Part shown: piece after piece, positions 1-59,211 of the stretch | How positions within the stretch are numbered: the first letter of the stretch is position 1 | Layout of the letters: every line of letters begins with the position of its first letter | NCBI GenBank assembly: GCA_025457665.1 | Contig: JALOTY010000005.1 | Location: 4,316-68,315 of the forward strand | DNA length: 64,000 bases | Direction: 5' to 3' | Source of the DNA: Akkermansiaceae bacterium | Lineage (GTDB): Bacteria; Verrucomicrobiota; Verrucomicrobiia; Verrucomicrobiales; Akkermansiaceae | Translations under genes and position numbers: made by a program | The notes under the pieces: generated by a model | Seen by the model: only the letters and a program-made list of their open reading frames with translations | Told to the model about the DNA's origin: nothing | Database searches by the model: none

Positions 1-2015
1 AGATAAGGCGGCGTGATGATCGTCAGCACCGGTGGGCCAGTCACGGTGATCGATCCGGTTTCCACCCATGACGAAAGTGCCCCATTCTCATCCCTCGCCC
101 TCGCACGAATGACATAACTCCCCGGCAGCCGCCACTGTCCCACCAGAGTCCGCGGCTGCCCCGCCGGACCAAAGGCACTCCAAACGGAATTCCGACCGTC
201 TCCCCAGTCCACCTGAACTTGCACGGGATCCGCATCCCCATCTCCCGGCAGAAACGCAAACTCAAGATTGCTTCCGGTTTCACCCGTGGAAGGACCTTCA
301 TGACTGGCCGCCATGGAAGGCGGCTGGTTCCCGGGAGTCGGGATGATTCTCACCCCTGCCGTGCCCAGAGCAGCAGCCTCCTCCGCGCTCAGAGCCTTGC
401 TGAAGATCGCCGCCATTCCCACGACCAGCGCTTGGTTTTCCAGACTCTCATCCGCGAACAACAAAACCTCAGCGGCATTCAAGGCATGCCTGCCATCCAG
501 GGCCGGCCGGGTGTGGGCGAAAAACAACTGACCATCGAGATAGGCCCGGTAAAAACCCGTCCCGCTCAGATCCACCGAAACCACCAATCGCCGCCACTCG
601 TTGGTGGGAAATGGAGAGTTGGAATAAGCCAGTCCACTGATGCCCAGCGCACTGTCGGAATTGCGAATGAAATACTCGCCATCATCCGTGTTCGCGAGAT
701 TCGTCTGCCATAACGTGCGCCACTGTCCTGCTGAGGGAATCAGCAGATCCATCACCATGGTGTAACGGTTCGTGAGATTGCCATCCCCGTTCGGGCCGAT
801 CCCGTGAATCGCCCGCAGATGATTTCCCTGACCGGCCACAGTGGTGATGACACCGGCAAGCGTGTTGGGATCCGCCCGGCCATCCGTCATGCTTGCCGCA
901 GTCACGGGCGATGTGCCGCTGATGATCAGGTCCGTCCCGTAGGTCGCCAAACCCGGATTCCCCGGCGCATCGAAATCCCACAAACCCACCAAACCATCCG
1001 GAATTCCTGCAGCAGGAGAAACATTCACCTGCTGCAAATTCACCCACGCCGATACCGCCCCGGGCAGATCCCGTGCCCGGGCCCGCAGGGTGAAGGTCCC
1101 GGAGTGGGGATAGGCGCGGGAAAAAACCACTGGGGTTCCCGATGGCACAGGTCCCGACCAGGCAGACCATCGACCATCCCCCCAATCGATCTGCATCTGC
1201 ACCGACGCCCCCTCGGGATCGGTCGCTTGCACGGTGAAGTTCTCCCCGGCGAGGGCGACCAGCGATGTGCCGCCGGCGGGAGTGATGGAAACCACCGGGG
1301 GCTGGCCGGGATCGACCGGTGCGGTTTGATCGAAATCCAGGTTGTCGATCGCGATGTTCACCGCAGAGCCACTGCCGCTTCCGCCAATGCGGACCAGATC
1401 CAGGCGGTAAGCCACGCCCGCCGTGCCTTGGAAATCAAGATGGACCGTGGGCGCTCCGGCATGAGTTCCATGGGATGACGGGGTTTGCGAGGTCACCGTG
1501 GTCCACAGCGGCGGAGTGGAGGTCCATTCCACCGCATTCGTCTGCGCATTCACGACATCCACGCGGTACTGATAGGTGTCGTTGTTGGTGTCACCGATGA
1601 AGTTGAACGATTTCAGGATCACCCCAAGGCCCGGAGTCGGCGTGAAAAGAATCGAAAAACGACTGTTGAGACTGCTGCCATCCATTTGCAGGACACCCCC
1701 GCCACTATTTGCGGCCGTGGCTCCGGCCCAGGTATGGAACTCCCAGCGATTCCCGTTGCTGCCACCCGTGGCGGACCATGTTAGATCCACCCCTGGCGTG
1801 CCCACAAGGTTCCCGGCGCCCACCGATGTTTCGAAAACCGCATTGCCCGGAGCTGCCAGCGCAATCTGATCCCCAAAGGTCTGGCCCACGGCGCTGTTGC
1901 TCGCACCCATGCCATTGGTGCCCGGTGAGTTGGCCCGGATGATGGTTCGTCCACTTGCCGCAGACATCATCAGACCTGCGAGAATGACGCTGACGCCGAG
2001 ACGATACATCTTCAT
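1..2015 (-). CDS. Secreted multidomain protein (signal peptide, PKD-like, LamG-like, second PKD-like), running off the left edge (partial)
   Basis: Not in the ORF track because it has no stop in the window. Manual translation from ATG at 2015: MKMYRLGVSVILAGLMMSAASG..., then QMQIDWGDGRWSAW and VQVDWGDGRNSVW (PKD WDFGDG-like motifs), LVGLWDFD...YTMVMDL...WRRLVVSVD...YLDG (LamG-like), ending ...LTIITPPYL at the edge with no stop. Confidence 0.8.
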   Translation of the reverse strand, partial: MKMYRLGVSVILAGLMMSAASGRTIIRANSPGTNGMGASNSAVGQTFGDQIALAAPGNAVFETSVGAGNLVGTPGVDLTWSATGGSNGNRWEFHTWAGATAANSGGGVLQMDGSSLNSRFSILFTPTPGLGVILKSFNFIGDTNNDTYQYRVDVVNAQTNAVEWTSTPPLWTTVTSQTPSSHGTHAGAPTVHLDFQGTAGVAYRLDLVRIGGSGSGSAVNIAIDNLDFDQTAPVDPGQPPVVSITPAGGTSLVALAGENFTVQATDPEGASVQMQIDWGDGRWSAWSGPVPSGTPVVFSRAYPHSGTFTLRARARDLPGAVSAWVNLQQVNVSPAAGIPDGLVGLWDFDAPGNPGLATYGTDLIISGTSPVTAASMTDGRADPNTLAGVITTVAGQGNHLRAIHGIGPNGDGNLTNRYTMVMDLLIPSAGQWRTLWQTNLANTDDGEYFIRNSDSALGISGLAYSNSPFPTNEWRRLVVSVDLSGTGFYRAYLDGQLFFAHTRPALDGRHALNAAEVLLFADESLENQALVVGMAAIFSKALSAEEAAALGTAGVRIIPTPGNQPPSMAASHEGPSTGETGSNLEFAFLPGDGDADPVQVQVDWGDGRNSVWSAFGPAGQPRTLVGQWRLPGSYVIRARARDENGALSSWVETGSITVTGPPVLTIITPPY

Positions 2016-2163
2016 GGGTGAACAAGGAGTCGAGAGGATAGGATTCAATTGGAGAGGTGATACGAATATCCCCTGATCTTCATTTCCGAATGGAAGTTCC
2101 ACCGCCTACGAAAAGGCCGCCCCTTCACGGAGCGGCCCTCAAAACCGATTTTCGCGGCAGCGA

Positions 2164-4422
2164 TCATGGGCGTCTGCGCCAGAACAGCAGACCCAGAGCG
2201 GCCAGACCCAGAGCGGCGCTTCCCGGTTCGGGCACGGCGGTGATGGTCACGAAGCTCGATCCCACGCCGCCATTGAGCCCGCTCAAGGCATCATCATAGT
2301 CGATCATCCAATCCCCGCCGGCATCATTGAAGATCGCACCATCGGCAAGGCCGGAGAAGGTTCCGGTCAGGCTGCCACTGTATCCGAACAGGGTGAATTT
2401 ATCCCCCACGGTGTAGGTGCCCAACTGCACCAGATCGAGCGTCGAATCCCCGAGATCAAGATTCCCTGAAACATTGGCAAAGTCCGCCGCAGAACCACCG
2501 CCGGTGACCTCATGAAGATAGGTCGCCGCGGCTGCGAGCGAAAGATTCGTGAAGTTCATCGATCCCGGCGATGTCCCCACCGAAAGGAGATTGCCCACGG
2601 TGAGATTGCCGGAAACGGTTCCATTTCCCGAGACGTTGTTGATCGTATATCCGCTCTTCGCGGAGATATCCAAGGTAGCGCCCAAACTCACCTGCACACC
2701 GCTGGTGTTGTCGATGGTGCCGGCGGAGGAGAGTGCCAAAGTGCCGGCAGAGACGAGAGTGGCACCCGTGTAGGTGTTCACTCCGGAGAGCGTGAGTGAA
2801 CCCGCACCGAGCTTGGTGAAGGTCGCCCCGCCCTGCACCACGCCACTGATGCCCGCGCTGTTGCCGGTGCCGACACCCACGCTGGCTCCACCCGTCAGTT
2901 GCAGGCTGTTGGCGATGGTGAAGCTGCCAAGCTGCAACGCACCCGCGGGCGGGCTGTTGCTATCGAGTACGATGTTTGCCGTACCTGCGGCACTGGCATT
3001 TCCGAGGATCAGGGGACCACGCTGGACATTGATGGTGCCGGCGAGGGTGTTGGTTCCATTCAAGGTAAGCGCCCCGGTGTTCTGTGAAGGCCCACCGCCT
3101 TGGAAAAAGAGCACCGTTCCGGTGCCACCGCCGGAAATCGTGCCGTTGAGCACCGTCGAGCTGTTGTTCGCGGTCAGGAGGGTGATGTTGCCGGTGCCGC
3201 TGGTGGGCAGGCTGATGTTGTTGGCCAGCGTGGCAGCCGTGCCGGTGATTTCCAAGCCGGTGCCCACGGCGTTGAAGGCGATGCTGCCGCTGCCGAGATT
3301 GCCCGCGCCCGCGATGGAGAGACGACCCTCATCAATCCGCACGCCGCCGGTCCCAGTTGCCGTGCCTGCCAGGGTGAGTGTCGTGGTGCCCTTTTTCACC
3401 AAGGTATTGTTGAAGGTGATGGCCCCATTGATCTGACTGCCGGTGAAGGTCTGGGTATTGATGTTGCTGCGGTCTGAAATGAAGATGCTTCGTGTCGCCG
3501 CCAGCGTGATATTGTTGGCACCGAAACGGAATCCGGTTCCCACCGGATCGTTCGCTGCGCCGACGTTCAGGCGGATCGCATTGTTGGCATTGCCGAGGGC
3601 GGCATCCGAGGTGATTTCCAGCGCCCCGCGCCAGACTTCCCATTCGCTCAGCGTCACAGTGTTGGATGCATTCGTGAGGCGCACCACGGATTGCCCGCTG
3701 CCCACCGTGCCATCGAGGCGGATCTTGGAAGTCGAGACTCCACCAGTGAGGAGCCCGGAGAAGGTCACGGTCTGGGGGCCGCCTGTGGTGTTCGACGTGA
3801 GAAGCAGGCGGGTCTGCCTTCCCGCCGTGGTGGTGAATGCGACGTTGTTAGAGAAGTTAACCGCATTGCCGGCGGCGGTCAGGAAATACAAACCCGTCAT
3901 GTCCGCGGTGTTCGCGAAGGTGATGGGGGCGGTGCCCAGCGCATTGGCATTGCCGAGGCGCAAAGCCCCGTCGCTCTGGCTGTTGGCCCCGGCATTGACG
4001 GTGATGGAGGTGAAGGTGTTGGCGTTGTCAAAACGCAAGCCATTGCTTCCGTTTTTGGTCAGCACACCACCAGTGATGGAGCCGCCCGTGAAAGCGTAGG
4101 AGCCGGAACCGGGCGCATTGAAGGTCAGGTCGCCCGCAGTGACGCCACCGGCGTCCACCGCGATGGAGCCGGCTGCTCCAGCGCCTGCACCGGCACCAAA
4201 AATGACATTGGTGCCGCCAGTGAAGCTCACATTGGTCGTGCCATTCCACCAGTTCGTGTTCGAGGTGTTCCAGGTTCCGGCTCCATCCTGGGCACCGGTG
4301 GTCGTGGTGTTGCTATCCCATGTCAGGGTCGATTGGGCGACGGCGGCGCACGGGATGACAAAGGTCGCAGCGAGGGCGAGCCATCGGGGGCTTTCAGTGG
4401 CGTTCATTCGGATTTCTTTCAT
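2164..4422 (-). CDS. PEP-CTERM protein with autotransporter-associated beta-strand repeats
   Basis: Signal peptide, Gly/Thr/Asn-rich repeats (LVKKGTTTLTLAG, FTKLGAGSLTLSGVNTYTGATLVSAGTL) and C-terminal VPEPGSAALGLAALGLLFWRRRP. The start could also be MNATES five codons later. Confidence 0.9.
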   Translation of the reverse strand: MKEIRMNATESPRWLALAATFVIPCAAVAQSTLTWDSNTTTTGAQDGAGTWNTSNTNWWNGTTNVSFTGGTNVIFGAGAGAGAAGSIAVDAGGVTAGDLTFNAPGSGSYAFTGGSITGGVLTKNGSNGLRFDNANTFTSITVNAGANSQSDGALRLGNANALGTAPITFANTADMTGLYFLTAAGNAVNFSNNVAFTTTAGRQTRLLLTSNTTGGPQTVTFSGLLTGGVSTSKIRLDGTVGSGQSVVRLTNASNTVTLSEWEVWRGALEITSDAALGNANNAIRLNVGAANDPVGTGFRFGANNITLAATRSIFISDRSNINTQTFTGSQINGAITFNNTLVKKGTTTLTLAGTATGTGGVRIDEGRLSIAGAGNLGSGSIAFNAVGTGLEITGTAATLANNISLPTSGTGNITLLTANNSSTVLNGTISGGGTGTVLFFQGGGPSQNTGALTLNGTNTLAGTINVQRGPLILGNASAAGTANIVLDSNSPPAGALQLGSFTIANSLQLTGGASVGVGTGNSAGISGVVQGGATFTKLGAGSLTLSGVNTYTGATLVSAGTLALSSAGTIDNTSGVQVSLGATLDISAKSGYTINNVSGNGTVSGNLTVGNLLSVGTSPGSMNFTNLSLAAAATYLHEVTGGGSAADFANVSGNLDLGDSTLDLVQLGTYTVGDKFTLFGYSGSLTGTFSGLADGAIFNDAGGDWMIDYDDALSGLNGGVGSSFVTITAVPEPGSAALGLAALGLLFWRRRP

Positions 4423-7400: not shown

Positions 7401-8573
7401 ACCCGCGGCAGGCAGGCTGATCGCGCCGCTGCCCAATGCTCCCGTCGTGCCTCCGTTGCCAAGGCGCAGCGTGCCTTCATCGACTCTCACTCCGCCCGTG
7501 CCGCTCGCGCTGCCATTCAGGGTCAGCGTGGATGCGCCTTTCTTGACGATGCTGTTAGAGAAAGTGATCGGGCCATCGATACGGCTGCCCGTGAAGTTGA
7601 AGGTCTGGATGTTGGTGCGGTCGGAAACAAAGATGCTGCGAGTGGCTGGCAGCACGATGTTGTCCGCGCCAAAGCGCAGCCCGGTTCCCAGAGGGTCGCC
7701 CGTAGCGCCGACATTCAGGCGGATCGCGTTGTTGACGTTTCCGAGGGCACCATCGGAAGTAATCTCCAGCGCCCCGCGCCAGATCTCCCATTCGCTCAAG
7801 GTCACGGTGTTGCCGGAGTTGGTGAGACGAACGACCGACTGGCCGCTGCCAGCGGTGCCATCGGTCCTGATCTTCGAGCTTGCCACACCTCCGGACAAGA
7901 GGCCTGAGAAAGTCACCGTTTGAGGTCCTCCTGCAGTGTTGGAAGTCAGCAGCAGGCGCGTCTGCAGTCCCGCCGTGGTCGCACTGGAGAAGGTGATGTT
8001 GTTGGAAAAGGTCGTCGCATTGCCGAAACCGGTGAGGAAAAACAAGCCGGTGAGACTCGCGGTGTTGTTGAAAGTGATGGGTGCCGTGCCGAGAGCGTTC
8101 GCATTGCCGAGTCGGAGGGCACCATCGGCTTGGGAGTTCGCACCGGCATTGACGGTCACCGAGCTGAAACTGTTGGCATTGTCGAAGCGGACTCCGTTGG
8201 TGCCATTCTTGGTCAAGGCCCCAGCGGTGATCGATGCCCCGGTGAAAGTGTAGGAACTGGTTCCCACGGTGTTGAAGGTCAGACTCCCCGCCGTCACGCC
8301 TCCGGTCACCACATTGATGGTCGCCGCTGCCGCAGGTGACCCGAAGGTGACGTTCGCACCGGCGGTGAAACTCGTATTGGCGGCACCATCCCACCAGTTG
8401 GTGTTGATGGTATTCCATGTTCCGGCTCCATCTTGGGCTCCGGAAGTCACGGCATCGGCATCCCATGTCAGGTTCGCTTGGGCAAACAGGGCACCGGGGA
8501 GGGACAGGGCGGCGGCGATGGAATGCCGCCGGAAACAGAAAAGGAAACGGCTTTTGTTGCAGGGAAGGGACAT
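4479..8573 (-). CDS. Large surface protein with autotransporter-associated beta-strand repeats and a Verrucomicrobia-type C-terminal domain
   Basis: The track starts it at 8822; the more likely start is MSLPCNKSRFLF at 8573, which precedes a signal-like segment. Many LTKxGxGxL repeats. C-terminus YESWIASKGL...DADPDNDGIENGIEFVLGTEP...GRLFARLAADAP. Confidence 0.85.
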   Translation of the reverse strand: MSLPCNKSRFLFCFRRHSIAAALSLPGALFAQANLTWDADAVTSGAQDGAGTWNTINTNWWDGAANTSFTAGANVTFGSPAAAATINVVTGGVTAGSLTFNTVGTSSYTFTGASITAGALTKNGTNGVRFDNANSFSSVTVNAGANSQADGALRLGNANALGTAPITFNNTASLTGLFFLTGFGNATTFSNNITFSSATTAGLQTRLLLTSNTAGGPQTVTFSGLLSGGVASSKIRTDGTAGSGQSVVRLTNSGNTVTLSEWEIWRGALEITSDGALGNVNNAIRLNVGATGDPLGTGLRFGADNIVLPATRSIFVSDRTNIQTFNFTGSRIDGPITFSNSIVKKGASTLTLNGSASGTGGVRVDEGTLRLGNGGTTGALGSGAISLPAAGGTFAVDRSDAVTLSNAISGIGSITQAGTGTTTLSAASAHTGTVNVNSGTLAFTGTGSSAGNVVIQPGGVLDVTGLSSAYAIPTGKSLSGGRSSAPGTDVNGDVDTAGGILQIMPGSGTGTLTVNGDLLVDGFGFPANAISFDLTDNPAATNDRIVVTGDLDLTVAANIGINRLNGQLGSGTYTLIEAGSITGDVSNLTFVGLPTPGSSRQTFTPSITAVPNSLTLAVSGSAASLVWTGATNLEWSTDAADENWNNLTAPDSQDRFFNADQVAFNDISGTPVQNLDLSTSVNPASIVVNNTAAGTAYGFGGSGVITGSTGLTKSGDGLLAITGTSHDFNGPVNLNGGTVEVAKLEDSTFVSSLGAGSSISIDNARLVVTSATDVFSNRTLNIGSNGARLDTLTTGVESLYTGAISAAGALTVGGNGKVALSGTGSLVGATTILSGATLAATSSAVLGSGAVVNDGTLEMRLATNATLNNAVSGSGGLLKTGLGNLTASLSAGFSSGPIVIQDGAVNFNLTSGSTVTLPGDITLPSGTFAPQLSVLNILNPSAPTTLILSGKLTGGNPAQILRLCDSQVVGNHNGVLVLQNAANDFQGTIEMWRGTLAFTSDAALGNADNDISHSTENLNGALRFDADNITLNAGRSITLYTNTQPMPINTQAFTGTIAGNFAGVGNLVKQGTGTLILTGTNNATGITTVSAGTLRVDGTFATGGGTVTVQTGGTLGGSGTINRAVAVNTGGAIAPGTTVGTLTTAAATITGNYQCDISGASSDAIAATDITLAAGSGLVVNEIAAGTAFPYVIATYSGTLTGTFGTVTPGYAVDYATPGQIKLVEQAGYESWIASKGLTGGDADFDADPDNDGIENGIEFVLGTEPNPANPGGNSTADLPSFVQDGTDWVFTFRRQQLALSVNPRAEFDTDLLATWTTATDPGNATITVTPDHYAAGIDRVEVRLPQTLASGGRLFARLAADAP

Positions 8574-8827: not shown

Positions 8828-9970
8828 ATGACGGTGACCCGCCAGCACGCCTTGGATGCTCTCGATCTCTTTCTCCCCAAAGCCGCGAACTACGCCAGAT
8901 ATCGTAATTTCGACACCGGTCCCGATGGCCCGCTCCACGTTTCCCGCCTCTCGCCCTATCTCCGCACCCGCCTCATCAACGAGGAGGAAGTCTGCACCGC
9001 CGTCATCGCCCGCCATGGCATCCATGCCCCGGAAAAATTCCTTCAGGAGGTCGCCTGGCGAACCTACTGGAAGGGCTGGCTGGAGTTGCGCCCGGGGGTC
9101 TGGGATGCCTGTCGCGAAAGCCTTTCCTCGCTCCAAGCCGATGACGACTGCCAGCGAGCCATGCGCGGGGAAAGCGGGATCGATTGCTTCGATGCCTGGT
9201 GCCGCGAACTTCTGGAAACCGGCTACCTCCACAATCACGCCCGCATGTGGTTCGCCAGCATCTGGATTTTCACCCTCCGCCTGCCCTGGGAACTTGGTGC
9301 CGACTTTTTCCTCCGCCATCTGCTCGATGGCGATCCCGCATCCAACACCCTTTCCTGGCGCTGGGTCGCCGGACTCCACACGCCCGGAAAACACTACCTC
9401 GCCCGCGCCGAAAACATCCGCACCTTCACCCTTGGTCGCTTCGATCCCCAGGGGCAGCTCGATGAATCCGCCGCCCCACTGCCGCCCGATTTCATCCCCG
9501 CCGCTAATGCCCCCGACTTCCCCAAGCCCCCGCCGTCCGGCGCCCGACTCGGCCACCTTCTCCTGCCCGATGACCTCTCGCCCCTTCCTTCAGGCCCCCA
9601 GGGCGGACCAAGCCTCACCGCCACCGCGGGCTGGATGCCCACAGCCACCGCTGCCCTTTCCGAAAAAGTCCGCCGCTTCCTCTCGGACGCCCTCGATGAT
9701 GCTCTGACCCGAAGCCGCGGGGAAAAACTCAGTGGCGATCTTTCGTCAGCCGCCGCCGATTGGGCACGGCGTTGGGGTTTGGAGGGCATCGTCATCACCC
9801 GCCCCACCGTCGGACCATGGCGGGAGTTGTTAGAAAACTTCGATCCCGGATTGCCCGTTTACCATCACGTCTCCGCCTGGGACCGACGTCTCTGGCCCCA
9901 CGCCACTGCGGGTTACTTCCGATTTCGCAGCCAGCTCCCCAAGATCTTCAACGAAATCCGTTCATCATGA
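8828..9970 (+). CDS. Short photolyase/cryptochrome-family protein with an N-terminal FAD-binding domain
   Basis: VSRLSPYLR, FLQEVAWRTYWK, GYLHNHARMWFAS, GADFFLRHLLDGDPASNTLSWRWVAG lie in the first ~200 of ~380 aa. Start ATG 8828 (MTVTRQHAL) is in frame with track ORF 8417..9970. Confidence 0.85.
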   Translation: MTVTRQHALDALDLFLPKAANYARYRNFDTGPDGPLHVSRLSPYLRTRLINEEEVCTAVIARHGIHAPEKFLQEVAWRTYWKGWLELRPGVWDACRESLSSLQADDDCQRAMRGESGIDCFDAWCRELLETGYLHNHARMWFASIWIFTLRLPWELGADFFLRHLLDGDPASNTLSWRWVAGLHTPGKHYLARAENIRTFTLGRFDPQGQLDESAAPLPPDFIPAANAPDFPKPPPSGARLGHLLLPDDLSPLPSGPQGGPSLTATAGWMPTATAALSEKVRRFLSDALDDALTRSRGEKLSGDLSSAAADWARRWGLEGIVITRPTVGPWRELLENFDPGLPVYHHVSAWDRRLWPHATAGYFRFRSQLPKIFNEIRSS

Positions 9971-10626: not shown

Positions 10627-11748
10627 ATGGCCATTGCCGATTTCGCCAACCGCTTCGTCTGCGACCTCCACGCCTATCAGACCGGCAAACCCATCGAGGA
10701 AACCGCCCGCGAACTCGGGCTCGACCCCGCCGCCATCATCAAGCTCGCCTCCAACGAGAACCCGCTCGGCCCCTCGCCCAAAGCCCGCGAAGCGATCCGC
10801 CGCGCCGCTGAAAAGGCCCACATCTACCCGGACGGTGCCGGATACCGCCTGCGCGAAGCCATCGCCGCCAAGTTCGGCCTCGGCATGGAAAACGTGATTC
10901 TCGGCAACGGCTCGAATGAAATCATCGAACTCCTCTGCCACAGCTTTCTCAATCCCCGCGCCGGCCTCATCGCCGCCGAACACGCCTTCGTCGTTTACAA
11001 ACTGATGGCCACCCTCTTCGGCGCGAACTACATCGAAGTCCCCGATCCCGGCTTCGTCCACGACCTCGATGCCATGGCCGCCGCCATCACTCCGGACACC
11101 CGTCTCGTCTTCATCGCCAACCCTAACAACCCCACCGGCACCGTCGTCGGCCAGGAGGAAATCGACCGCTTCATGGCCCGTGTGCCCGATCATGTGGTCG
11201 TCTGCTTCGATGAAGCCTACCACGAGTTCCTCGAAAACGCCCCCGACACCCTCCGCTACGTCCGCGAGGGCCGGAACGTTTGTGTCCTGCGCACCTGCTC
11301 CAAGGTCCACGGCCTCGCCGCCCTGCGCATCGGTTACGGCCTTGCCTCGCCCGCCGTCGCCGCCGTGCTCCAGAAGGCCCGCCAGCCCTTCAATACCAAC
11401 CAACTTGCCCAAGACGCCGCCCTCGCCGCCTTGACCGACGACGACCACGTCCGCCGCACCTGCGAGCTGAACCGCGAAGGCCTCGCCTTCTGGCAGGACG
11501 CCTTCACCACCCGCGGCCTGCACTTCGTCCCCAGCGTGGCGAACTTCGTCCTCGTCGAAGTCGGCGATGGCGATGCCCTCTTCGCCGCCATGCTCCGCCA
11601 GGGCGTCATCGTCCGTGCCATGAGTTCCTACAAGCTGCCCGGCTGGGTCCGCATCAGCATCGGCACCATGGAGGAAAACCGTCGTGCCTTGGAGGTCATG
11701 GATCTCGCCCTCGCCGGGATTCGCACGCCCGCCGGGATCCCCGCTTGA
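10627..11748 (+). CDS. hisC: Histidinol-phosphate aminotransferase
   Basis: IKLASNENPLGPSP, GNGSNEII, IANPNNPTG, DEAYHEF, RTCSKVHGLAALRIGY (PLP lysine). Confidence 0.92.
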   Translation: MAIADFANRFVCDLHAYQTGKPIEETARELGLDPAAIIKLASNENPLGPSPKAREAIRRAAEKAHIYPDGAGYRLREAIAAKFGLGMENVILGNGSNEIIELLCHSFLNPRAGLIAAEHAFVVYKLMATLFGANYIEVPDPGFVHDLDAMAAAITPDTRLVFIANPNNPTGTVVGQEEIDRFMARVPDHVVVCFDEAYHEFLENAPDTLRYVREGRNVCVLRTCSKVHGLAALRIGYGLASPAVAAVLQKARQPFNTNQLAQDAALAALTDDDHVRRTCELNREGLAFWQDAFTTRGLHFVPSVANFVLVEVGDGDALFAAMLRQGVIVRAMSSYKLPGWVRISIGTMEENRRALEVMDLALAGIRTPAGIPA

Positions 11749-25858: not shown

Positions 25859-25916
25859 AATCGGCTCCGCCCGGAAGACCCATTTGACGCCGCAAGGAAG
25901 CTGGCGAGGGTGGGGC

Positions 25917-26618: not shown

Positions 26619-26641
26619 CGGCATCGTCGCCCGCACTTCTG

Positions 26642-27007
26642 TTAGACCGCCTTGCTTTTCAGAAAGGCGACCGCGGCGGCGATCCATGAGGCGATGATCA
26701 GCACGCCACCCACCGGAGTCACCGGGCCCAGGAAGGAAACGTTTTCTAACAGACAGAGCAGATAGATGCTGCCGGAAAACAGCAGCACGCCCGCCAGCAT
26801 GGTCCATCCCGCCCGGGTCAATCCGGCCTGGGCGAGCACCAGCGCGGCGATGGAGTGGGTCAGATGATAGAGCACGGCGGTATCGAAGGAGTCCACATGA
26901 CCGGCCTTTTTCAGAAAGTCATGAAGCGCATGGGCCGCCAGCGCGCCAAGGCCCACGGAGAGGGCGGCGGAAAGGGCGGCGGCAGCGGCGAGGGGACGTG
27001 ATTTCAT
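26642..27007 (-). CDS. DUF423 (YgdD/TMEM256-like) membrane protein
   Basis: Start MKSRPL at 27007; GALAAH, TAVLYHLTH, LFSGSIY, GPVTPVGG. Confidence 0.88.
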   Translation of the reverse strand: MKSRPLAAAAALSAALSVGLGALAAHALHDFLKKAGHVDSFDTAVLYHLTHSIAALVLAQAGLTRAGWTMLAGVLLFSGSIYLLCLLENVSFLGPVTPVGGVLIIASWIAAAVAFLKSKAV

Positions 27008-34438: not shown

Positions 34439-35646
34439 TGTTGTACTGGATCTACGATTTCTGGAAGTCGGCCTTCGATGCCGAGAAAGCCGCCGGCACC
34501 GAAGGCTGGGCTCACACGATGAGTTTCCTCAACCTTCTCGGCTACATCACTTTCCGCGCCGCCGTCGCCTGTCTGCTCTCCTTCGGCCTGAGCATCCTTT
34601 TCGGCCCTCGGGTGATCCGTCGGCTCATTTCCCTGAAGGTCGGCCAGCCCATCCGCACCGCCGAGGAAGTCCACAAGCTCGCCGAACTCCACGGCGGAAA
34701 GGTCGGCACCCCCACCATGGGCGGTGTCCTCATCCTCGGTTCCGTCCTCGCCTCCGTCCTCATTTGCGCCCGCCCCTTCAATCCCTTCGTCGCGGTCTGC
34801 GCCTGCACCATGGGCGCCCTCGGCCTGTTAGGGTTCATGGACGATTACACGAAGGTGAAAAAGAAGAACTCGGATGGCGTCAGCGCCCGCACGAAGTTGT
34901 TCTGGCAGCTCGTCATCGGCCTCATCGCCGCCTGTTTCCTCTACTTCAAGACGGAGATCTCCGGCTTCGGCGCAGGACCGGACATGGCCGGCACGGTCGG
35001 CTATCAGTTCGGAAATGAACCACTGAAAATCAGCCAGATCACCTTCCCGCTTTTCAAGACACCGCTCATCGATCTTCACTGGTTCGTCATTCCTTTCTAT
35101 GTCGCGATCATCATCGGCTGTTCGAATGCCGTGAACCTCACCGATGGCCTCGATGGCCTCGCCACCGGCTGCACGATCACCGTTTCCCTCGCCTACGCCG
35201 GTCTCGCCTATCTCGCCGGCCATCACTTCATGGCGAATGATTACCTGACCATTCCCTACAACCCCTTCGTCGGCGAGCTGTCCGTTTTCCTCATGGCCCT
35301 CGCCGGTGCCGGCTTCGGTTTCCTGTGGTTCAACTGTCACCCTGCCAAGGTCTTCATGGGCGATACCGGCTCGCTCGCCATCGGCGGTGCCATCGGCACG
35401 GCGGCCCTTTGCGTGAAACAGGAACTGCTGCTGGTCATCATCGGCGGTGTCTTCGTGATGGAAGCACTCTCCGTCATGCTCCAGGTGGGCAGCTTCAAGC
35501 TCCGCAAAAAGCGGATCTTCGCCATGGCCCCCATCCACCACCATTTCGAACTCCGCGGCTGGCATGAAAGCCAGGTGATCATCCGCTTCTGGATCCTCTC
35601 CATCATGCTCGCCCTCGCCGGGCTGGCCCTTCTCAAAATTGTCTAA
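34438..35646 (+). CDS. mraY: Phospho-N-acetylmuramoyl-pentapeptide transferase
   Basis: KVGTPTMGG, MDDYTK, NAVNLTDGLDGL, FMGDTGSL, MAPIHHHFEL. Confidence 0.97.
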   Translation: MLYWIYDFWKSAFDAEKAAGTEGWAHTMSFLNLLGYITFRAAVACLLSFGLSILFGPRVIRRLISLKVGQPIRTAEEVHKLAELHGGKVGTPTMGGVLILGSVLASVLICARPFNPFVAVCACTMGALGLLGFMDDYTKVKKKNSDGVSARTKLFWQLVIGLIAACFLYFKTEISGFGAGPDMAGTVGYQFGNEPLKISQITFPLFKTPLIDLHWFVIPFYVAIIIGCSNAVNLTDGLDGLATGCTITVSLAYAGLAYLAGHHFMANDYLTIPYNPFVGELSVFLMALAGAGFGFLWFNCHPAKVFMGDTGSLAIGGAIGTAALCVKQELLLVIIGGVFVMEALSVMLQVGSFKLRKKRIFAMAPIHHHFELRGWHESQVIIRFWILSIMLALAGLALLKIV

Positions 35647-50008: not shown

Positions 50009-50794
50009 TCACCCTCCTCTCAAGGCCGCGATCAGATGCCTGAGTTCGTCCTCCACCTCTTCCATGGTCCCGACCGTTCTCGCCACTTCCGCACGCAGCA
50101 ATTCCCCGAACCTCTGCCGCAGCTTGTAAACGGCCGACTTCACCGCCGCTTCGGAAATCCCCAGCATCGCAGCGGTTTCGGCATAACTCCGCGGATGGCC
50201 ATCGTCTGTTAGATAAACCTTCAGACGCCGATATCGATCTCCCTGTCCCACCGCCTCATGTTCCCTGCGGATGCGCTCGCGGACCCGGGCAAGCAGCGTC
50301 ATGGCCCATTGGCGGTCGTACGCCTGTTCGGGATCATCCCCGGATCGCGGCTCACAGGCATCCCTCACCCCCGGCGGCAAACCATCCAGATCCACAAACA
50401 CCAGCCCGCCACCGCGCTTCTGCGCCTTGCTTTTTTTCCACTCGTTGATCAGGAAATGATTCACTGCACCTAACAGGAAGGCACGGAACCGACCCTTGTC
50501 GGGATTCGCCCCTCCGAGCGAGGCTCCCTGAAGCATTCTCGCGAAGAATTCCTGGGTCAGGTCCATGGATTCCTCATGCCCGTGACCCTTGCCCCGCAAA
50601 TGGGCATACACCGGCGGCCAATAAGCGCGGCACAAGTGCTCCAGCGCCTCGCAGGGTCGCTCCCCGCTGCCATGAACCGCAGCCAACACCATGCTCCACT
50701 GCGTGGGCTCGAAACCACCACGCTCCGCCTGCCCGAGAGGCGGCAAGCCGGGCAATTCATCTTCGGGCGTTCGGGGCTGCAAAGGCTGGCTCAT
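50009..50794 (-). CDS. ECF-type RNA polymerase sigma factor, kinase-associated
   Basis: Likely start MSQPLQP at 50794; FEPTQWSMV, LCRAYWPPVY, DLTQEFF, GRFRAFL, QKRGGG, SYAETAAMLGISEAAVKSAVYKLR; immediately upstream of the kinase. Confidence 0.88.
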   Translation of the reverse strand: MSQPLQPRTPEDELPGLPPLGQAERGGFEPTQWSMVLAAVHGSGERPCEALEHLCRAYWPPVYAHLRGKGHGHEESMDLTQEFFARMLQGASLGGANPDKGRFRAFLLGAVNHFLINEWKKSKAQKRGGGLVFVDLDGLPPGVRDACEPRSGDDPEQAYDRQWAMTLLARVRERIRREHEAVGQGDRYRRLKVYLTDDGHPRSYAETAAMLGISEAAVKSAVYKLRQRFGELLRAEVARTVGTMEEVEDELRHLIAALRGG

Positions 50795-52662: not shown

Positions 52663-54048
52663 ATGCCTTGGGAAACTCTCAATCTCGATCCCGCCACCGC
52701 CACCGTGCGGGATGTCAAGAAAGCCTACGCCACCCGTCTCAAGACCTGTCGTCCCGATCAGGATCCGGAATCCTTCCGCAAGCTCCACGAGGCCTACACG
52801 CTGGCTCTTCACGAAATCGAAACCCGCGGCAAGGATCCCAGCCCGCCCGAACTGCCCATCCCTGAGACTCCGGCGCCCACCGCCGAGCCGCAGGAACCTG
52901 CGGTGCTTTCCCCGATTTCCGGGAGCCTTGACCGTCTTGCCACCGCTCTGGAATTAGGGGCTGGTGACATCGCCACCCTGCTCCGCGAGGCAGAGGCGGA
53001 AGTCCGCAAACATCCTGCCGAAATCCTCACCTGGGGCGAGCGGATCTTCGATCTCATCCAACGCCATCCCGATCACCCCGACCTTCGCCTCAAGCCCGAA
53101 GCCATCCTCTTCGAACTCGAGCACCAGGGCCTCGCGGCCACACTGGCCATCATCGGGCGGGCCGACCTTCAGGGCAATCAAAAGACTCTCGGCAGTCTAA
53201 GCAAGCTGCTGTTAGAAAACTCCCTCCGCATCGGCAATCCCGCCGGTGGCCTCGCGGCCGCCCGTCTCGCCTGTGCGGTGGCCTTTTGGTGCCCGAACGA
53301 GGTCTCCGACCTCAGTGACTTCGCCTACTCGACGCTGGCACGCGGAGAAAGGGATCATCACATGGCCATGATCGATCAGCATGGAGGCATGCGTCAGTTT
53401 CTTCGTTCCGCGCCCGATTCGCTGCTCTCCTTCCTCCGGCAGCGTCTGCTTCAGCCTGGCGATGGGAGCGAGTGGTACACTCCGGAAGGCACCACAGCCC
53501 TCGTATGGCTGGGCCGCATCCGCCGTCGCGCTCCGGACCTGTACGATACCTTTGCGCAGCTCCTGCCTCCGGAACTCGCCACGGAACATCCTCCGGTTCG
53601 CCCACTCAACGAACTCGAGCCCCCGGCCCATTCCACCTCCACTTCCGGCGGGGGGAACGAGGACCCGCCATTGCGCTGGCAGCCGAAACAATCGAAACAA
53701 GGCACAACCCGCAAAGGCGGTCCCCAGGATCCGTTTGAGGCCAGTTTCGATGACCCCGGCTCCCCCCCTCAACCTGCGAAGAAATCCCCGGCTCCACCTC
53801 CATCCCCCGCCCGGCCCGCAAGCAAACCCAGCCCCAAGGAAGTTCCCGCCAGCGCTCCACGCAGCGGCGGTCATGGCGATTGGCTCAATGATGAAATTCA
53901 GCCCCAAGGTCGCAAATCGAAATCGGTTTCCCAAAGCGACACCGCGCATCCCCCACGCAGCAGCCCGGTCAAAGCCATCATCTTCGGCATTTTCTTCGCC
54001 CTCTTCGTCATCCGCATCCTGTGGGCGCTGCTCCGCGAGATTCTCTAA
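52663..54048 (+). CDS. J-domain protein (DjlB/DjlC-like) with C-terminal membrane anchor
   Basis: PWETLNL...DVKKAYATRLKTCRPDQDPESFRKLHEAY; Pro-rich linker; C-terminal TM AIIFGIFFALFVIRILW. Confidence 0.8.
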   Translation: MPWETLNLDPATATVRDVKKAYATRLKTCRPDQDPESFRKLHEAYTLALHEIETRGKDPSPPELPIPETPAPTAEPQEPAVLSPISGSLDRLATALELGAGDIATLLREAEAEVRKHPAEILTWGERIFDLIQRHPDHPDLRLKPEAILFELEHQGLAATLAIIGRADLQGNQKTLGSLSKLLLENSLRIGNPAGGLAAARLACAVAFWCPNEVSDLSDFAYSTLARGERDHHMAMIDQHGGMRQFLRSAPDSLLSFLRQRLLQPGDGSEWYTPEGTTALVWLGRIRRRAPDLYDTFAQLLPPELATEHPPVRPLNELEPPAHSTSTSGGGNEDPPLRWQPKQSKQGTTRKGGPQDPFEASFDDPGSPPQPAKKSPAPPPSPARPASKPSPKEVPASAPRSGGHGDWLNDEIQPQGRKSKSVSQSDTAHPPRSSPVKAIIFGIFFALFVIRILWALLREIL

Positions 54049-54069
54049 CAAATCACACCTTGCACGGAC

Positions 54070-55746
54070 TCACCCCGACCATTCCTGTTCGATGGTCTTC
54101 AGCTCCAGGTAGAGCGTGTTCCACTTTTCGGCCAAGGGGCCGAGCTCTGCCTGACGATCGGCGAGACGGCGGCGGACGGAGATCAGGCCCTGGCCGTAGC
54201 CTTCGAAAACCTCGCGGATGGCCTCGGTGTGAAATTTCCTGAGAGCCTCGCCAAAGCGGCCGGAGGCATGGATCAGCCGGTCCTTGAATCCACGGATCGC
54301 GGTGCGACGGGTCAGCCAGCCGAGAAAACCTAACAGAAGCGCCCCGGCCACCACCGCCCAGACCAGCCAGCCCGTCCATGGCTCCAGGCCGAAGCTGCCG
54401 CAAATCCCCATCAGGGTGACCAGCACCAGCCAAAACCCGAACCAGCCACGGAGTCGACGCGACCGCTGCCGCATCAGGCCATCGATCAACACCCGCAGGC
54501 GCAGGCCACCGAGGTATTCCGGCACGGCACGGCCGACGCGATCATCGAAACCAGCGGCCACTTGTTCGCGATGGCTGGCCAGCATGGGAGGCATTTCTCC
54601 GGGGTCGAAACCCATGCGCTCGATGACCCGCGGCCGCACTGCGCCCCAGTGACCGGAGCATTCGGCGAAAATCCGTTCGAGATCCCGCGCTGCGAAGGCG
54701 GAAACCAGGGCTTTGAGCCGGACGTCGCAGGCCACTTCCGCTTCACCGCCGGCGGCATCGCCCAACAACAGGCCCTTGAAAGTTCCCCAAAGGCCCATTT
54801 TCCGCCGAAGCTCCCGAGCGAAGCCTTCCACGGCCATGCCATAAACATGGAGTTGCTTGTCCAGCTCATCCGCGGAGGATTCGACCAGCAGATCGCGCAA
54901 TTGTTCGCCTTCGCGCTCCAGTCCACCGAGGAACCAGCCATCATCGGCCATGCCGCGCTTCTGGCGGTCCAGCCCGTCCTCGATTTCCCGCATGCGGCGG
55001 TAGGATTCGTGAAATGCACGGTCGAGCAAATGGCGCCGACCCGGCTCAAGGCACATCCGGTCCTCAAGAAACTCCTCCAAGCCCCGCAGCTCAGGCGCGC
55101 CGCCGGGAGGCAGGGCGGAAAGAATCAGGATGGGCAATTTCCGACCGATCTTTTTCAAGGTCAGATCGGTCATGTGTCCCCGGATGACACGCAGGTCCTC
55201 CGGGCCTTTTTTGTCGGCCATCTGAACCACCAGGGCCGTGCGTTCGAGGGTCTCGTCACCCAGCATGCTCAGCCATTCCCAGGTGGCCGCGGTCCAGGTG
55301 TTGTCCGCCGGGAAAACCACCAACAGGACGTCGAGCCGCTCGAAATCGGCGAGCGCGGCAAACATTTCCTCGCGCTGCGGGCCGTTGAGGCCGGGGGTAT
55401 CGATCCACCCGATGCGGTCCAAGCCCGGAGCCTGATGCACTTCCACCAGGCAACCCGGGGGAAGGGCGGAACTTTCAGTGAAACCCGGGCCGACGTGAGC
55501 CGTCATCCCGCGGGTGGTGGGCACCGGGGCCACCTCGGCGAGCTTCGCTCCGGCCAGGGCATTGAGGAGGGCGGACTTGCCGGCATTGACCTCTCCCACG
55601 ATGCCCCCCAACCAGCGACGGCCAAGTTCGGCAGCCGCTTCTTCCGACTCGCGCGGACTCAGGCCGCTTTCTCCGGCGAGGGATTCGATCCGGGCACGGC
55701 AGGCCGCCAAGCGATCGCGGGTGTGGAAGAAACGCTCACCCCACAT
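54070..55746 (-). CDS. Dynamin-like/Era-like GTPase with a C-terminal TM hairpin
   Basis: GEVNAGKSALLN (G1), PTT (G2), DTPG (G3), long helical stalk and two hydrophobic helices near the C-terminus. Confidence 0.7.
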   Translation of the reverse strand: MWGERFFHTRDRLAACRARIESLAGESGLSPRESEEAAAELGRRWLGGIVGEVNAGKSALLNALAGAKLAEVAPVPTTRGMTAHVGPGFTESSALPPGCLVEVHQAPGLDRIGWIDTPGLNGPQREEMFAALADFERLDVLLVVFPADNTWTAATWEWLSMLGDETLERTALVVQMADKKGPEDLRVIRGHMTDLTLKKIGRKLPILILSALPPGGAPELRGLEEFLEDRMCLEPGRRHLLDRAFHESYRRMREIEDGLDRQKRGMADDGWFLGGLEREGEQLRDLLVESSADELDKQLHVYGMAVEGFARELRRKMGLWGTFKGLLLGDAAGGEAEVACDVRLKALVSAFAARDLERIFAECSGHWGAVRPRVIERMGFDPGEMPPMLASHREQVAAGFDDRVGRAVPEYLGGLRLRVLIDGLMRQRSRRLRGWFGFWLVLVTLMGICGSFGLEPWTGWLVWAVVAGALLLGFLGWLTRRTAIRGFKDRLIHASGRFGEALRKFHTEAIREVFEGYGQGLISVRRRLADRQAELGPLAEKWNTLYLELKTIEQEWSG

Positions 55747-56857: not shown

Positions 56858-58264
56858 ATGGCCAGCACCCCTCCCAAGAAACCGAATCTGGATTCGGTCA
56901 CCACCATCAATACCGATGGCTCCCGCTATTTCCTCCACCCGGCCGATGTCCACGGGAAATGGACCCTCGCCCGCCGGATCTTCGGGCTTCTCCTCATCGC
57001 GATCTACGTCCTTCTCCCCTGGATCCCCATCAATGGCGCACCTGCGGTGTTCTTCGATGTCGAGCACCGCCAGTTCTATTTCTTCGGCCTCAACTTCCGC
57101 CCGCAGGACCTGTGGATGATGTTCTTCGGCATCACCGGCCTCGGCTTCAGCCTCTTTTTCATCACCTCCCTGCTCGGCCGTCTCTGGTGCGGCTGGGCCT
57201 GTCCCTACACGGTGTTTCTCGATCACATCTACCGCCGGATCGAAAGGATGATCGAGGGCGATGCCCAAGCCCGTCGCAAACTCGCCGCCGCCCCCTGGAC
57301 CGCAGGAAAAATTTCCAAGCGCGTCCTCAAACACGGCCTCTATGCCCTCTGCGCCACGATCATAGCCCACGTCTTCCTCTCCTACTTCGTCTCCATGGAG
57401 CGGCTCTACGGATTCATGAATGAAGGCCCGCTGGCCCACGCCACCGCCTTCGGCATCGTCGCCTTCCTCACCTGCGTGCTGTGGTTCTGCTTCGGCTATT
57501 TCCGCGAGCAGTTCTGCGTGATCATGTGCCCCTATGGCCGCCTGCAAAGCGCGCTGACCGATGATGACACCGTGATCATCGGCTACGATGAAGGCCGCGG
57601 CGAACCCCGCGGAGCCAAGGACAAGACCACGGGCGATTGCATCGACTGCCGGCGCTGCGTGAACGTCTGCCCCACCGGCATCGATATCCGCAATGGCCTG
57701 CAGCTCGAATGCATCGGCTGCGCGGCCTGCATCGACGCCTGCGATGACATCATGCGCAAGATCCAGAAACCCACCGGCCTGGTGCGATACGACTCGCTCA
57801 ATGGTTTGAGCAAAAAGAAACGCCGCTTCATCCGCCCGCGCATCATCGCTTATACCATCCTCGGTTTGTTAGGGATGGGAGCCTTCCTCTTCACCGCCAC
57901 TCGCAAGGCGGGACCCTACACCGCGCGTTTCTCGAAAATGGCCATGGCCGGCCAGCCTTACCTTGCCGACCAGGAGACAGTGAAGAATTTCTATCAGCTC
58001 CGTTTCCTCAACAAGCGTAACGAAACCGTCACCTTCCGTGTCACCGCCGTGGATCCCCCTCCCGGTCTCATTCTGAGCGGTGGCGACCAGGACATTCCGG
58101 TCAGTCCACGGGGTGAGGTCGCGCGGCAGTTCGTCGCCATCCTGCCCTTGAAAGGCATCGAAGGCCGGACCTCCCTCACCTTCCGCATCACCAGCGAACC
58201 CGGAGGCCATCAAACGGAGCAGACCCTCAATTTCCTCGGTCCGAACGCCCACCAAAATCCCTGA
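56858..58264 (+). CDS. ccoG: Cytochrome c oxidase accessory ferredoxin-like protein CcoG (FixG/RdxA)
   Basis: Start MASTPPKK at 56858; WCGWACP, CVIMCPYGRLQ, CIDCRRCVNVCPTGIDIRNGLQLECIGCAACIDAC. Confidence 0.93.
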   Translation: MASTPPKKPNLDSVTTINTDGSRYFLHPADVHGKWTLARRIFGLLLIAIYVLLPWIPINGAPAVFFDVEHRQFYFFGLNFRPQDLWMMFFGITGLGFSLFFITSLLGRLWCGWACPYTVFLDHIYRRIERMIEGDAQARRKLAAAPWTAGKISKRVLKHGLYALCATIIAHVFLSYFVSMERLYGFMNEGPLAHATAFGIVAFLTCVLWFCFGYFREQFCVIMCPYGRLQSALTDDDTVIIGYDEGRGEPRGAKDKTTGDCIDCRRCVNVCPTGIDIRNGLQLECIGCAACIDACDDIMRKIQKPTGLVRYDSLNGLSKKKRRFIRPRIIAYTILGLLGMGAFLFTATRKAGPYTARFSKMAMAGQPYLADQETVKNFYQLRFLNKRNETVTFRVTAVDPPPGLILSGGDQDIPVSPRGEVARQFVAILPLKGIEGRTSLTFRITSEPGGHQTEQTLNFLGPNAHQNP

Positions 58265-58409: not shown

Positions 58410-58421
58410 CCCCACACGCTC

Positions 58422-59138
58422 ATGGAACCCACCACCGTTGTCGGAGCCCTCGCCGTGGGCCTCGCCACCTCCCTTCACTGCGCGGGAATGTGCGGACCCA
58501 TCGCCTGCGGAGTCGGCACCCTCGCGAAAACCGAGACCGAACGACTCACCGCCGCCAGCCTCTATCACAGCACCCGCCTGCTTTCCTACGGAATCATCGG
58601 TGCCATCTGCGGGGCGATCGGCAAGGAACCGCTGCATTGGTTTTTCGATTCCCCCGCCGTGCTCCTCCCTTGGGCGCTCGTGGTCGCGCTGCTGCTGTTA
58701 GCCAGCGGTCTCGATAAGAAAATCCCGCGACCGAAGATCCTCAGCCGACTCGTGGCACGTGCCCGATTCAAGGCCGGGCGATTCTCCACCATCGGCGGTT
58801 CCGCCGCCATGGGATTGCTCACGCCCTTCCTTCCCTGCGGACCCCTGTATGCCGTTTTCATCGCTCTCATGGCCTCCGGTTCCGCCGCCCGTGGTGCGGA
58901 AGCCGCACTCGCCTTCGGTCTCGGCACCGTGCCGCTGCTGTGGTTGGCACAACACCAGTTCCACCGCCTGCGCCTGAAACTCACCCCCATCCGCCTCGCC
59001 CGACTGCAACGCGGCCTCGCCCTGGTCACCGCCCTCTTGCTCGCCTGGCGCCTGCACGACACCCTCCCCTCCTGGAATCCCGCACCCGAAACCCCCGCAG
59101 TCCAGGAAACCAAGGAGCTGCCTTCCTGTTGTCATTGA
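58422..59138 (+). CDS. TauE/SafE-like (DsbD_2) membrane protein of heme-copper oxidase maturation clusters
   Basis: SLHCAGMCGPI, YHSTRLLSY, GLLTPFLPCGPLY, FGLGTVP; C-terminal CCH. Confidence 0.85.
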   Translation: MEPTTVVGALAVGLATSLHCAGMCGPIACGVGTLAKTETERLTAASLYHSTRLLSYGIIGAICGAIGKEPLHWFFDSPAVLLPWALVVALLLLASGLDKKIPRPKILSRLVARARFKAGRFSTIGGSAAMGLLTPFLPCGPLYAVFIALMASGSAARGAEAALAFGLGTVPLLWLAQHQFHRLRLKLTPIRLARLQRGLALVTALLLAWRLHDTLPSWNPAPETPAVQETKELPSCCH

Positions 59139-59211
59139 GGTCCGTGCGGCAAACAAAATGCCGTGCGACCGGGAGATCGCACGGCGGGAGGCTTATCTAA
59201 CAGATTCCCAC

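Follow-up and report, generated by a model that had tools for sequence, protein, structure and literature searches.

A hyper-abundant, strand-independent DNA octamer, YTGTTAGR, in the genome of a Luteolibacter species and its patchy distribution among relatives

The octamer in the window and in the genome

The window analyzed here is the whole stretch of 64,000 nucleotides at positions 4,316 to 68,315 of contig JALOTY010000005.1 (G000:C15:4316-68315), which belongs to a 4.68-Mb draft genome (G000; 162 contigs, 61% G+C) that its MraY protein and division and cell wall (dcw) gene cluster placed in Luteolibacter (Verrucomicrobiota), the best named relatives being Luteolibacter sp. Populi and metagenome-assembled genomes of Luteolibacter. 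The octamer YTGTTAGR (Y, C or T; R, A or G) recurs along this window, and almost certainly represents a genuine genomic word that is installed on double-stranded DNA rather than arising incidentally from coding, composition, repeats or replication. An initial annotation of the window had listed 24 TGTTAG or CTAACA hexamers, all of which are present (15 on the plus strand and 9 on the minus strand); only 3.4 are expected from 100 dinucleotide-preserving shuffles, none of which reached 24. The accompanying claim that nearly all of them extend to YTGTTAGR was also borne out, as 21 of the 24 do so, compared with 0.95 expected octamers from the same shuffles. Its count of about a dozen other TTAG or CTAA tetramers was close: among the 39 tetramers in the window, 24 lie within the hexamer and 15 elsewhere.

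The gene set used for G000 came from a rough self-trained call, which yielded 2,628 genes and spans 76% of the genome; it is crude, and several real genes inside the window were missed. Within called genes, many copies are read in the sense direction as two leucine codons followed by a codon for Gly, Glu or Asp. CTGTTAGG is found in this frame at 26535..26542 (plus strand, CTG-TTA-GGC, Leu-Leu-Gly), in mraY at 34825..34832 (plus, CTG-TTA-GGG, Leu-Leu-Gly), at 39097..39104 (minus, Leu-Leu-Gly in gene 39084-40322(-)) and at 54329..54336 (minus, Leu-Leu-Gly in gene 54070-55746(-)), and TTGTTAGG at 57866..57873 (plus, TTG-TTA-GGG, Leu-Leu-Gly). Further sense copies are TTGTTAGA at 41056..41063 (minus, TTG-TTA-GAA, Leu-Leu-Glu) and CTGTTAGA at 53209..53216 (plus, CTG-TTA-GAA, Leu-Leu-Glu), and a gene for an EssC-like ATPase carries three on the plus strand, CTGTTAGA at 43691..43698 (Leu-Leu-Asp), TTGTTAGA at 45383..45390 (Leu-Leu-Glu) and CTGTTAGA at 45968..45975 (Leu-Leu-Asp). 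Antisense copies comprise TTGTTAGA at 3845..3852 (plus; gene 2164-4422(-), read TCT-AAC-AA), CTGTTAGA at 7552..7559 (plus; gene 4479-8822(-), read TCT-AAC-AG) and TTGTTAGG at 11122..11129 (minus; gene 10627-11748(+), read CCT-AAC-AA). Three plus-strand hexamers do not extend to the octamer, namely ATGTTAGA at 1779..1784 (antisense, read CTA-ACA), GTGTTAGG at 40979..40984 (antisense, read CCT-AAC-AC) and CTGTTAGC at 58696..58701 (sense, Leu-Leu-Ala).

The remaining copies lie at gene ends, outside gene calls or in genes that the gene finder missed. One TTGTTAGA copy at 54044..54051 (minus) falls on the stop codon of gene 52663-54048(+), the TAA of CTAACA occupying 54046-54048, and another at 9827..9834 (plus) is outside gene calls, as are the CTGTTAGA copies at 26639..26646 (plus) and 26745..26752 (minus). 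Together with the sense copy at 26535, the latter two make up a trio within 210 bp (26535-26752, two plus and one minus) that sits at and just beyond the end of the open reading frame (ORF) 25884-26618, just upstream of the mraZ/rsmH region. Missed ORFs hold CTGTTAGA at 49809..49816 (minus; ORF 46946-49981(-), a Ser/Thr kinase) as well as CTGTTAGA at 50206..50213 (plus) and CTGTTAGG at 50469..50476 (minus), both within ORF 50009-50851(-). Finally, CTGTTAGA at 59196..59203 (minus) is near the start of ORF 59158-60666(+). These frames, namely YTG-TTA-GRN (Leu-Leu-Asp/Glu/Gly), antisense CTA-ACA and YCT-AAC-AR, with copies at and between gene ends, are as the initial annotation described them.

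Genome-wide, TGTTAG accounts for 1,614 of the 3,304 TTAG tetramers of G000, and the other 15 NNTTAG contexts for 34-178 each. YTGTTAGR occurs 1,341 times (648 on the plus and 693 on the minus strand), or about once per 3.5 kb, and is over-represented approximately 30- to 65-fold. Its commonest form, CTGTTAGA, is present in 613 copies versus 12-20 expected and has the highest z-score among all 65,536 8-mers under both order-1 and order-3 Markov models, a genome-wide check that had been proposed from the window alone. Positions 2-7 are essentially invariant, and the outer positions are partly specified (position 1, C 67% and T 21%; position 8, A 60% and G 34%). The word is not palindromic: its complement is YCTAACAR, and symmetry is limited to the outer Y/R positions. 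No information was found outside the eight positions in either genic or intergenic flanks of G000, which rules out that the word is part of a longer repeat. None of the single-mismatch variants at positions 2-7 exceeds expectation except CTGATAGA (307 copies versus 35 expected), a form of the also abundant YTGATAGR. Since about 79% of YTGATAGR copies lie in a single frame, antisense NYC-TAT-CAG (Tyr-Gln), its abundance is an ordinary codon-context effect, and it served as a contrast word.

Codon usage, orientation and spacing

According to the gene calls of G000, YTGTTAGR lies in sense frame 1 (YTG-TTA-GRN) 565 times, in sense frame 2 (NYT-GTT-AGR) 37 times, and in antisense orientation 188 times as CTA-ACA and 141 times as YCT-AAC-ARN; 11 copies fall on TAG stops, and 399 start outside called genes, 363 of them lying wholly outside. 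A codon-preserving model, which retains the amino-acid sequences and the genome-wide synonymous codon usage, was applied to the four stop-free frames with the reversed word as control. The 927 copies observed in these frames compare with 29 expected (8.7 + 2.5 + 1.6 + 16.3), and the enrichment per frame is 9- to 118-fold, against 1.0-2.0 for the reversed word. The initial annotation had read the word as a DNA-level signal under selection, and had reasoned that such a signal would have to stay enriched over a codon-preserving control. The enrichment survives this model in every frame, which supports selection or drive acting on the DNA itself and not an effect of coding.

The word is built on the rarest codons of G000. 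Of its 958 TTA codons, 565 (59%) are inside YTGTTAGR, and 21% of all Leu-Leu-[D/E/G] tripeptides are encoded with the word. The genome has one gene for tRNA-Leu(UAA). Between the least and the most codon-biased genes, word density drops from 0.33 to 0.16 per kb; genes with the lowest G+C content at third codon positions (GC3) likewise have a low density. Intergenic copies show no extra conservation of their flanks. Because 59% of TTA codons in this genome exist only owing to the word, codon-usage and expression models for these bacteria will be distorted.

Orientation was examined relative to base skew. Third codon positions on the coding strand of G000 have a strong C excess (GC3 skew -0.26), and the GC skew of the window is about -0.1; with GC3 skew separated from replication-type skew, the C-rich strand holds slightly more gene bases (56%). 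In the genome, the locally G-rich strand carries 588 copies of YTGTTAGR, compared with 428 for the C-rich strand. After cancelling the coding-strand C excess, a transcription effect, the split becomes 424:350 (55:45), which by our own estimate is approximately what the G + T surplus of the word would give at a skew of 0.09. A polar word of the type of Chi or the FtsK-orienting polar sequences (KOPS) is thus ruled out, there being no co-orientation with replication beyond base skew, in agreement with the lack of KOPS-like polarity suggested from the window.

Close pairs of copies are mostly in the same orientation (61 versus 30 inverted within 200 bp), and as no pair spacing is preferred, an inverted-pair terminator or dimeric operator was ruled out. 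Counts per gene are only mildly over-dispersed, with a maximum of 10 copies in an 8.4-kb gene, so that dense arrays in particular genes were likewise rejected. Among the word-free stretches of 20-28 kb are two restriction/defence islands, which have no copies of the word, and a respiratory-chain operon. One of these stretches, G000:C94:136695-162758 (26 kb, 58% G+C), encodes an SNF2-type helicase, a 1,006-aa DPPY methyltransferase and a large restriction-like helicase, and is likely a recently acquired defence island. Another, of 28 kb, contains a Type I restriction subunit (HsdR-like, 1,214 aa; G000:C73:43708-47352) with, as judged by eye, an apparent inserted DUF559/Vsr-like endonuclease segment.

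Distribution among relatives and turnover of sites

Abundance was compared across genomes as the ratio of YTGTTAGR to the reversed-word control. Among 35 Luteolibacter genomes this ratio ranges from 0.10 to 3.3, intermediates included; about half of the genomes are word-rich and 16 are at or near baseline. G000 is the richest (3.3) and, in a five-protein tree, sister to three word-poor species (0.20-0.29), one of which, G017, is among the two nearest to it. The word-rich species form several separate groups in the same tree. A family-wide panel of 151 genomes showed enrichment of the word in at least 8 of the 18 genera, patchy within each of these, with maxima of 8.4 for the ratio and 1.1 copies per kb for the density; three well-sampled genera are at or near baseline in most members, with a few genomes at 0.5-0.8. 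Twelve genomes from seven other families of the order were all at baseline, and none of the approximately 230 genomes outside the family in a draw of 251 across the phylum reached the level of G000. One arbitrarily chosen Steroidobacteraceae metagenome-assembled genome (MAG) was also at baseline. Our literature searches turned up no earlier account of a word of this kind in Verrucomicrobia.

A related word was observed in a Chthoniobacterales MAG that had been chosen only via its MraY. In its dcw region (L006), TCGTTAGGC occurs 31 times in 21 kb, making up 31 of the 36 GTTAG-containing sites there, and the genome holds 3,342 YGTTAGR copies in 3.4 Mb. TCGTTAGGC and YTGTTAGR have the same GTTAG core and differ in their flanks. 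It is conceivable, though on balance doubtful, that the Akkermansiaceae and Chthoniobacterales words are dialects belonging to a single, so far undescribed system by which Verrucomicrobiota recognize their own DNA. In that case, GTTAG-core words would add another family to the uptake or recombination signals known from Neisseriaceae and Pasteurellaceae, gain and loss of the reader would be frequent enough to leave sister species 10- to 30-fold apart, and cultured Luteolibacter species would provide natural on/off pairs for finding it.

Comparison with the sister species G017 indicated how the sites arise. The 140 orthologues compared (74% amino-acid identity) contain 39 G000 sites, of which G017 has none; a second tally of orthologous sites likewise gave 0 of 19 shared. 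At these sites G017 mostly has the same tripeptide in common codons, such as CTG-CTG-GAG or CTC-CTC-GGA. The word-creating changes are C-to-T and G/C-to-A, two or three per site and transversions included, and therefore no single mutational process explains YTGTTAGR. With the more distant, word-rich G001, mutually compatible sites comprise 5 shared, 8 confined to G000 and 23 confined to G001 (odds ratio 6, P=0.007), more sharing than chance would give. Sequence similarity around the shared sites does not exceed that in the remainder of the gene, and recent transfer between word-rich species was rejected on this ground.

In the dcw genes of the 35 Luteolibacter species, 18 site instances at 10 positions were observed, all in word-rich genomes, and the 16 word-poor genomes have none. 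The mraY site at 34825..34832 has no counterpart at the aligned position in any of the 34 other genomes, and one murD site is common to all members of a four-species subclade. Conservation at orthologous codons, which had been put forward as a check on the word, was not apparent: 17 close word-rich pairs keep 16 of 42 sites, compared with 14.2 expected for any 8-mer, in a small sample. All of these site-conservation tests rest on tens of sites; within that small sample there is no sign of site-level conservation, and positions turn over between word-rich species.

Candidate mechanisms and known word systems

The above results establish a whole-word, strand-symmetric and lineage-specific force on DNA, which overrides codon preference and does not hold individual sites. 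Uptake bias coupled with recombination, as at the DNA uptake sequences (DUS) of Neisseriaceae and the uptake signal sequences (USS) of Pasteurellaceae, is the best-known process with these properties, and by analogy we tentatively favor a whole-word transmission bias of this kind, as has recently been proposed for HIP1 of cyanobacteria, while giving it clearly less than an even chance. Copies arise mostly by synonymous change of Leu-Leu-(Asp/Glu/Gly), from CTS-CTS-GRN to CTG-TTA-GRN, and equivalent changes yield copies in the other three stop-free frames and between genes; positions turn over between species, and copy number settles at about one per 3.5 kb. In the favored process, word-bearing conspecific DNA would be preferentially taken up or recombined, and lineages losing the reader or the transformation habit would decay to the low baseline typical of TTAG-containing words. 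Several features point toward this reading: the two orientations are balanced and show no polarity beyond base skew, the word-poor sister species encodes the same peptides with common codons, sites turn over among word-rich species, density halves in the most codon-biased genes, the defence islands are free of the word, the Chthoniobacterales word recalls a DUS dialect, and G000 encodes ComEC, a type IV pilus cluster, DprA and RadC.

A number of observations weigh against this proposal. The word is patchy within one genus, Luteolibacter, and the word-poor G017 has no alternative over-represented word in 390 kb. Pasteurellaceae carry variants of the USS. Likewise, the surveyed Neisseriaceae carry a DUS dialect (PMC3630211), whereas the word-poor relatives here have none. 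About half of DUS and USS copies are in terminators or inverted pairs (bioRxiv 10.1101/2025.10.24.684340), whereas only 30 inverted pairs lie within 200 bp among the 1,341 copies of YTGTTAGR, with no preferred distance. Spacing is clustered, with a median of 1,538 bp versus 2,420 bp expected and a coefficient of variation of 1.22. For two orders to have the GTTAG core in common, the reader would have to be conserved, and this would not be predicted of a lineage-specific pilin. Literature searches aimed at natural transformation or uptake specificity in Verrucomicrobia yielded no report of either. The uptake genes profiled are present and syntenic in word-poor species too, and so leave the patchy distribution unexplained: ComEC is encoded in 35 of 35 Luteolibacter genomes, PilM is found in 34 of 35, a syntenic type IV pilus cluster (compared as a whole) occurs in word-rich and word-poor species, and DprA and RadC are present in both alike. 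Our preference for uptake stays tentative because the word is patchy within one genus, does not form terminator pairs and is clustered in spacing, and because the uptake genes are present throughout.

Nor was the protein that reads YTGTTAGR found among 11 hand-picked candidate determinants (ComEC, the type IV pilus cluster, DprA, RadC, AddAB, an HHH_3-domain protein, three DNA methyltransferases, Vsr and an integron integrase), none of which accounts for the distribution of the word. The HHH_3-domain protein occurs in word-rich and word-poor species alike. An integron link was considered through the core site GTTRRRY, GTTAGGC being the canonical core of attC sites. The integrase is present in 20 of 35 Luteolibacter genomes without correlation with the word: it is absent from the word-rich G015, G012, G007, G042, G036 and G005 and present in 11 word-poor genomes, and the link was rejected. 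G000 itself encodes an integron-type integrase above the curated cut-off (G000:C29:578-1519), and several of the 20 positive genomes have multiple copies.

The alternative that survives best, which we nevertheless consider unlikely, is a function at each site, whereby an abundant or patrolling protein would read every copy on double-stranded DNA with a small benefit per copy. The word could be a Chi-like attenuator or 'self' mark for an AddAB-type helicase-nuclease or a defence system, or a site for a nucleoid or architectural protein. Six fully and two partly specified positions correspond to the information content of a protein binding site, one copy per 3.5 kb is a density like that of Chi in E. 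coli, and no copies are found in the defence islands. RecC is absent from G000, and an AddA/AddB pair is present (G000:C6:75473-81192). The sharing of 5 of 13 comparable sites between G000 and G001 (odds ratio 6, P=0.007) and the murD site retained in all four subclade members would also fit. However, the shared sites have no special conservation in their flanks, close word-rich relatives keep sites at the rate of any 8-mer (16 of 42 versus 14.2), and orientation is unbiased beyond base skew (55:45 once the transcription effect is removed). The clustered spacing and the inclusion of a respiratory operon among the word-free stretches of 20-28 kb are further points against it. In addition, AddB is encoded in all five species tested, word-rich and word-poor, with the closest copy coming from a word-poor species. 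The AddB of G000 is 66% identical to that of G003 versus 54% to that of the sister species G017, at odds with the species tree. Of the roles suggested by the initial annotation, which read the word as a selected DNA-level signal for a nucleoid protein, recombination or uptake, the DNA-level part held; the particular roles are not established, as no reader was found, sites are not conserved above background and spacing is clustered.

Less probable still is a biased conversion linked to repair or modification, as in the classical model of the highly iterated palindrome HIP1, in which a sequence-specific methyltransferase or mismatch nuclease biases heteroduplex repair or mutation toward the word with no uptake involved. 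Turnover without site conservation would fit continual replenishment, and, like mobile or orphan modification genes and like HIP1, the word is patchily distributed and has been lost repeatedly (PMC4390886). Within Luteolibacter, a Vsr match was found in 19 of 19 genomes with a ratio of at least 0.9, three of these being gene fragments only, with intermediate ratios, and all 10 genomes without a match are word-poor; in G000 and G001 the vsr gene also adjoins that of a C5 methyltransferase. Across the family panel this relationship fails, because at least 25 genomes with a ratio of at least 2 in five other genera have no Vsr match, and 13 of the 19 Vsr-positive genomes outside Luteolibacter have a ratio below 1.5. 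The direction of repair is also wrong for creating the word: Vsr repair converts T:G to C:G, opposite to the C-to-T and G/C-to-A changes observed. Correction at one position would add at most the rare T-variant pool, and no single-mismatch neighbor is depleted enough to be the feeder. Vsr was therefore rejected as the determinant.

Three of the ten methyltransferases in G000 were profiled across species, and these also fail to follow the word. The C5 methyltransferase adjoining Vsr has orthologues in only 4 other species, and no C5 methyltransferase was found in the word-rich G042 and G007, nor in G009, likewise word-rich (74% complete). A 284-aa N4/N6 methyltransferase is also present in word-poor species, and a Type IIG-like methyltransferase of 1,065 aa is strain-specific. 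The N4/N6 enzyme (G000:C94:59395-60249, SPPY motif) shows 79-85% identity in all five Luteolibacter species tested and looks like a core orphan methyltransferase. In G000 the vsr gene is directly upstream of that of the 428-aa C5 DNA methyltransferase (G000:C117:1531-3173, locus L176), and the pair recurs in G001. Another Luteolibacter clade has a lone Vsr in a conserved housekeeping neighborhood, between genes for a dioxygenase-like protein and a rhomboid protease; as it is kept even in G042 and G007, which lack a C5 methyltransferase, it is an orphan Vsr.

The weight that uptake, per-site function and biased conversion leave over is assigned to unknown processes. The weakest alternative, a by-product of codon-pair bias, composition, repeats or assembly error, can practically be discarded: although 565 of the 942 copies in called genes (61%) share the Leu-Leu-(D/E/G) frame, and TTAG is rare in general so that any tolerated context stands out, four stop-free frames and intergenic DNA are all enriched and the reversed word is not, the true codon effect of CTGATAGA is restricted to one frame, the flanks of YTGTTAGR copies are unique, the same word occurs in dozens of independently assembled genomes, and it is absent from sister species with the same codon habits. 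The codon-preserving expectation together with this one-frame contrast word excludes a codon-pair or composition artefact.

To our knowledge, comparable behavior is limited to the uptake words of Neisseria and Haemophilus and to HIP1 of cyanobacteria. In E. coli, very short patch repair (Dcm and Vsr) leaves CCWGG over-represented and CTAG depleted, with an effect of approximately 2-fold for the product word. Vsr similarly tracks YTGTTAGR within Luteolibacter and adjoins a C5 methyltransferase in G000, but the family-wide correlation fails, the direction of repair is opposite, and the enrichment is 30- to 100-fold. Chi (GCTGGTGG in E. coli), KOPS and the SpoIIIE recognition sequences (SRS) are 8-mers of similar density that are over-represented in the core genome and read by a translocating enzyme, and AddAB is encoded in G000. 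Such words are strongly co-oriented with replication, and every characterized Chi or KOPS word known to us is polar, whereas YTGTTAGR is not co-oriented with replication beyond base skew. Moreover, Chi of E. coli rides on common codons, and YTGTTAGR needs the rarest.

HIP1 (GCGATCGC) and YTGTTAGR are both octamers that occupy coding as well as non-coding DNA and have disappeared from some lineages, as documented for cyanobacteria (PMC4390886), and the 15- to 300-fold over-representation of HIP1 (PMC5861425) spans that of YTGTTAGR. In contrast, HIP1 is palindromic, is read by two known methyltransferases and has sites conserved between genomes (PMC5861425), whereas YTGTTAGR is asymmetric, has no cognate methyltransferase among the three profiled, and keeps its sites no better than any 8-mer, in a small sample. 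The function of HIP1 was long unexplained and has now been tied, experimentally and phylogenetically, to natural transformation (bioRxiv 10.1101/2024.09.10.611283; PMC13756078).

The DUS (GCCGTCTGAA and its dialects, read by the minor pilin ComP) and the USS (AAGTGCGGT core) are, as YTGTTAGR, short, non-palindromic and over-represented words. Like them, YTGTTAGR is equally frequent in both orientations (648:693) without replication polarity, lies in genes in several frames at some coding cost, and is missing from recently acquired DNA. Its density is about three times lower than that of the uptake words in Neisseria or Haemophilus. Unlike the DUS and USS, it is patchy within one genus, with word-poor species having no substitute word, its copies are not concentrated in terminators or inverted pairs and are clustered in spacing, and no receptor was identified for it among the candidates tested. 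The sharing of a core between YTGTTAGR and TCGTTAGGC across lineages recalls the DUS dialects, which also have a shared core (PMC3630211). Few hyper-abundant strand-independent words are known (DUS, USS and HIP1), and each opened work on bacterial recognition of self-DNA. No uptake signal has been reported for the phylum that carries YTGTTAGR, and Luteolibacter includes cultured isolates as well as complete genomes. The on/off distribution of the word among close species is unusual, and the contrast between G000 (3.3) and its sister species (0.20-0.29) makes the reader findable by a comparative screen.

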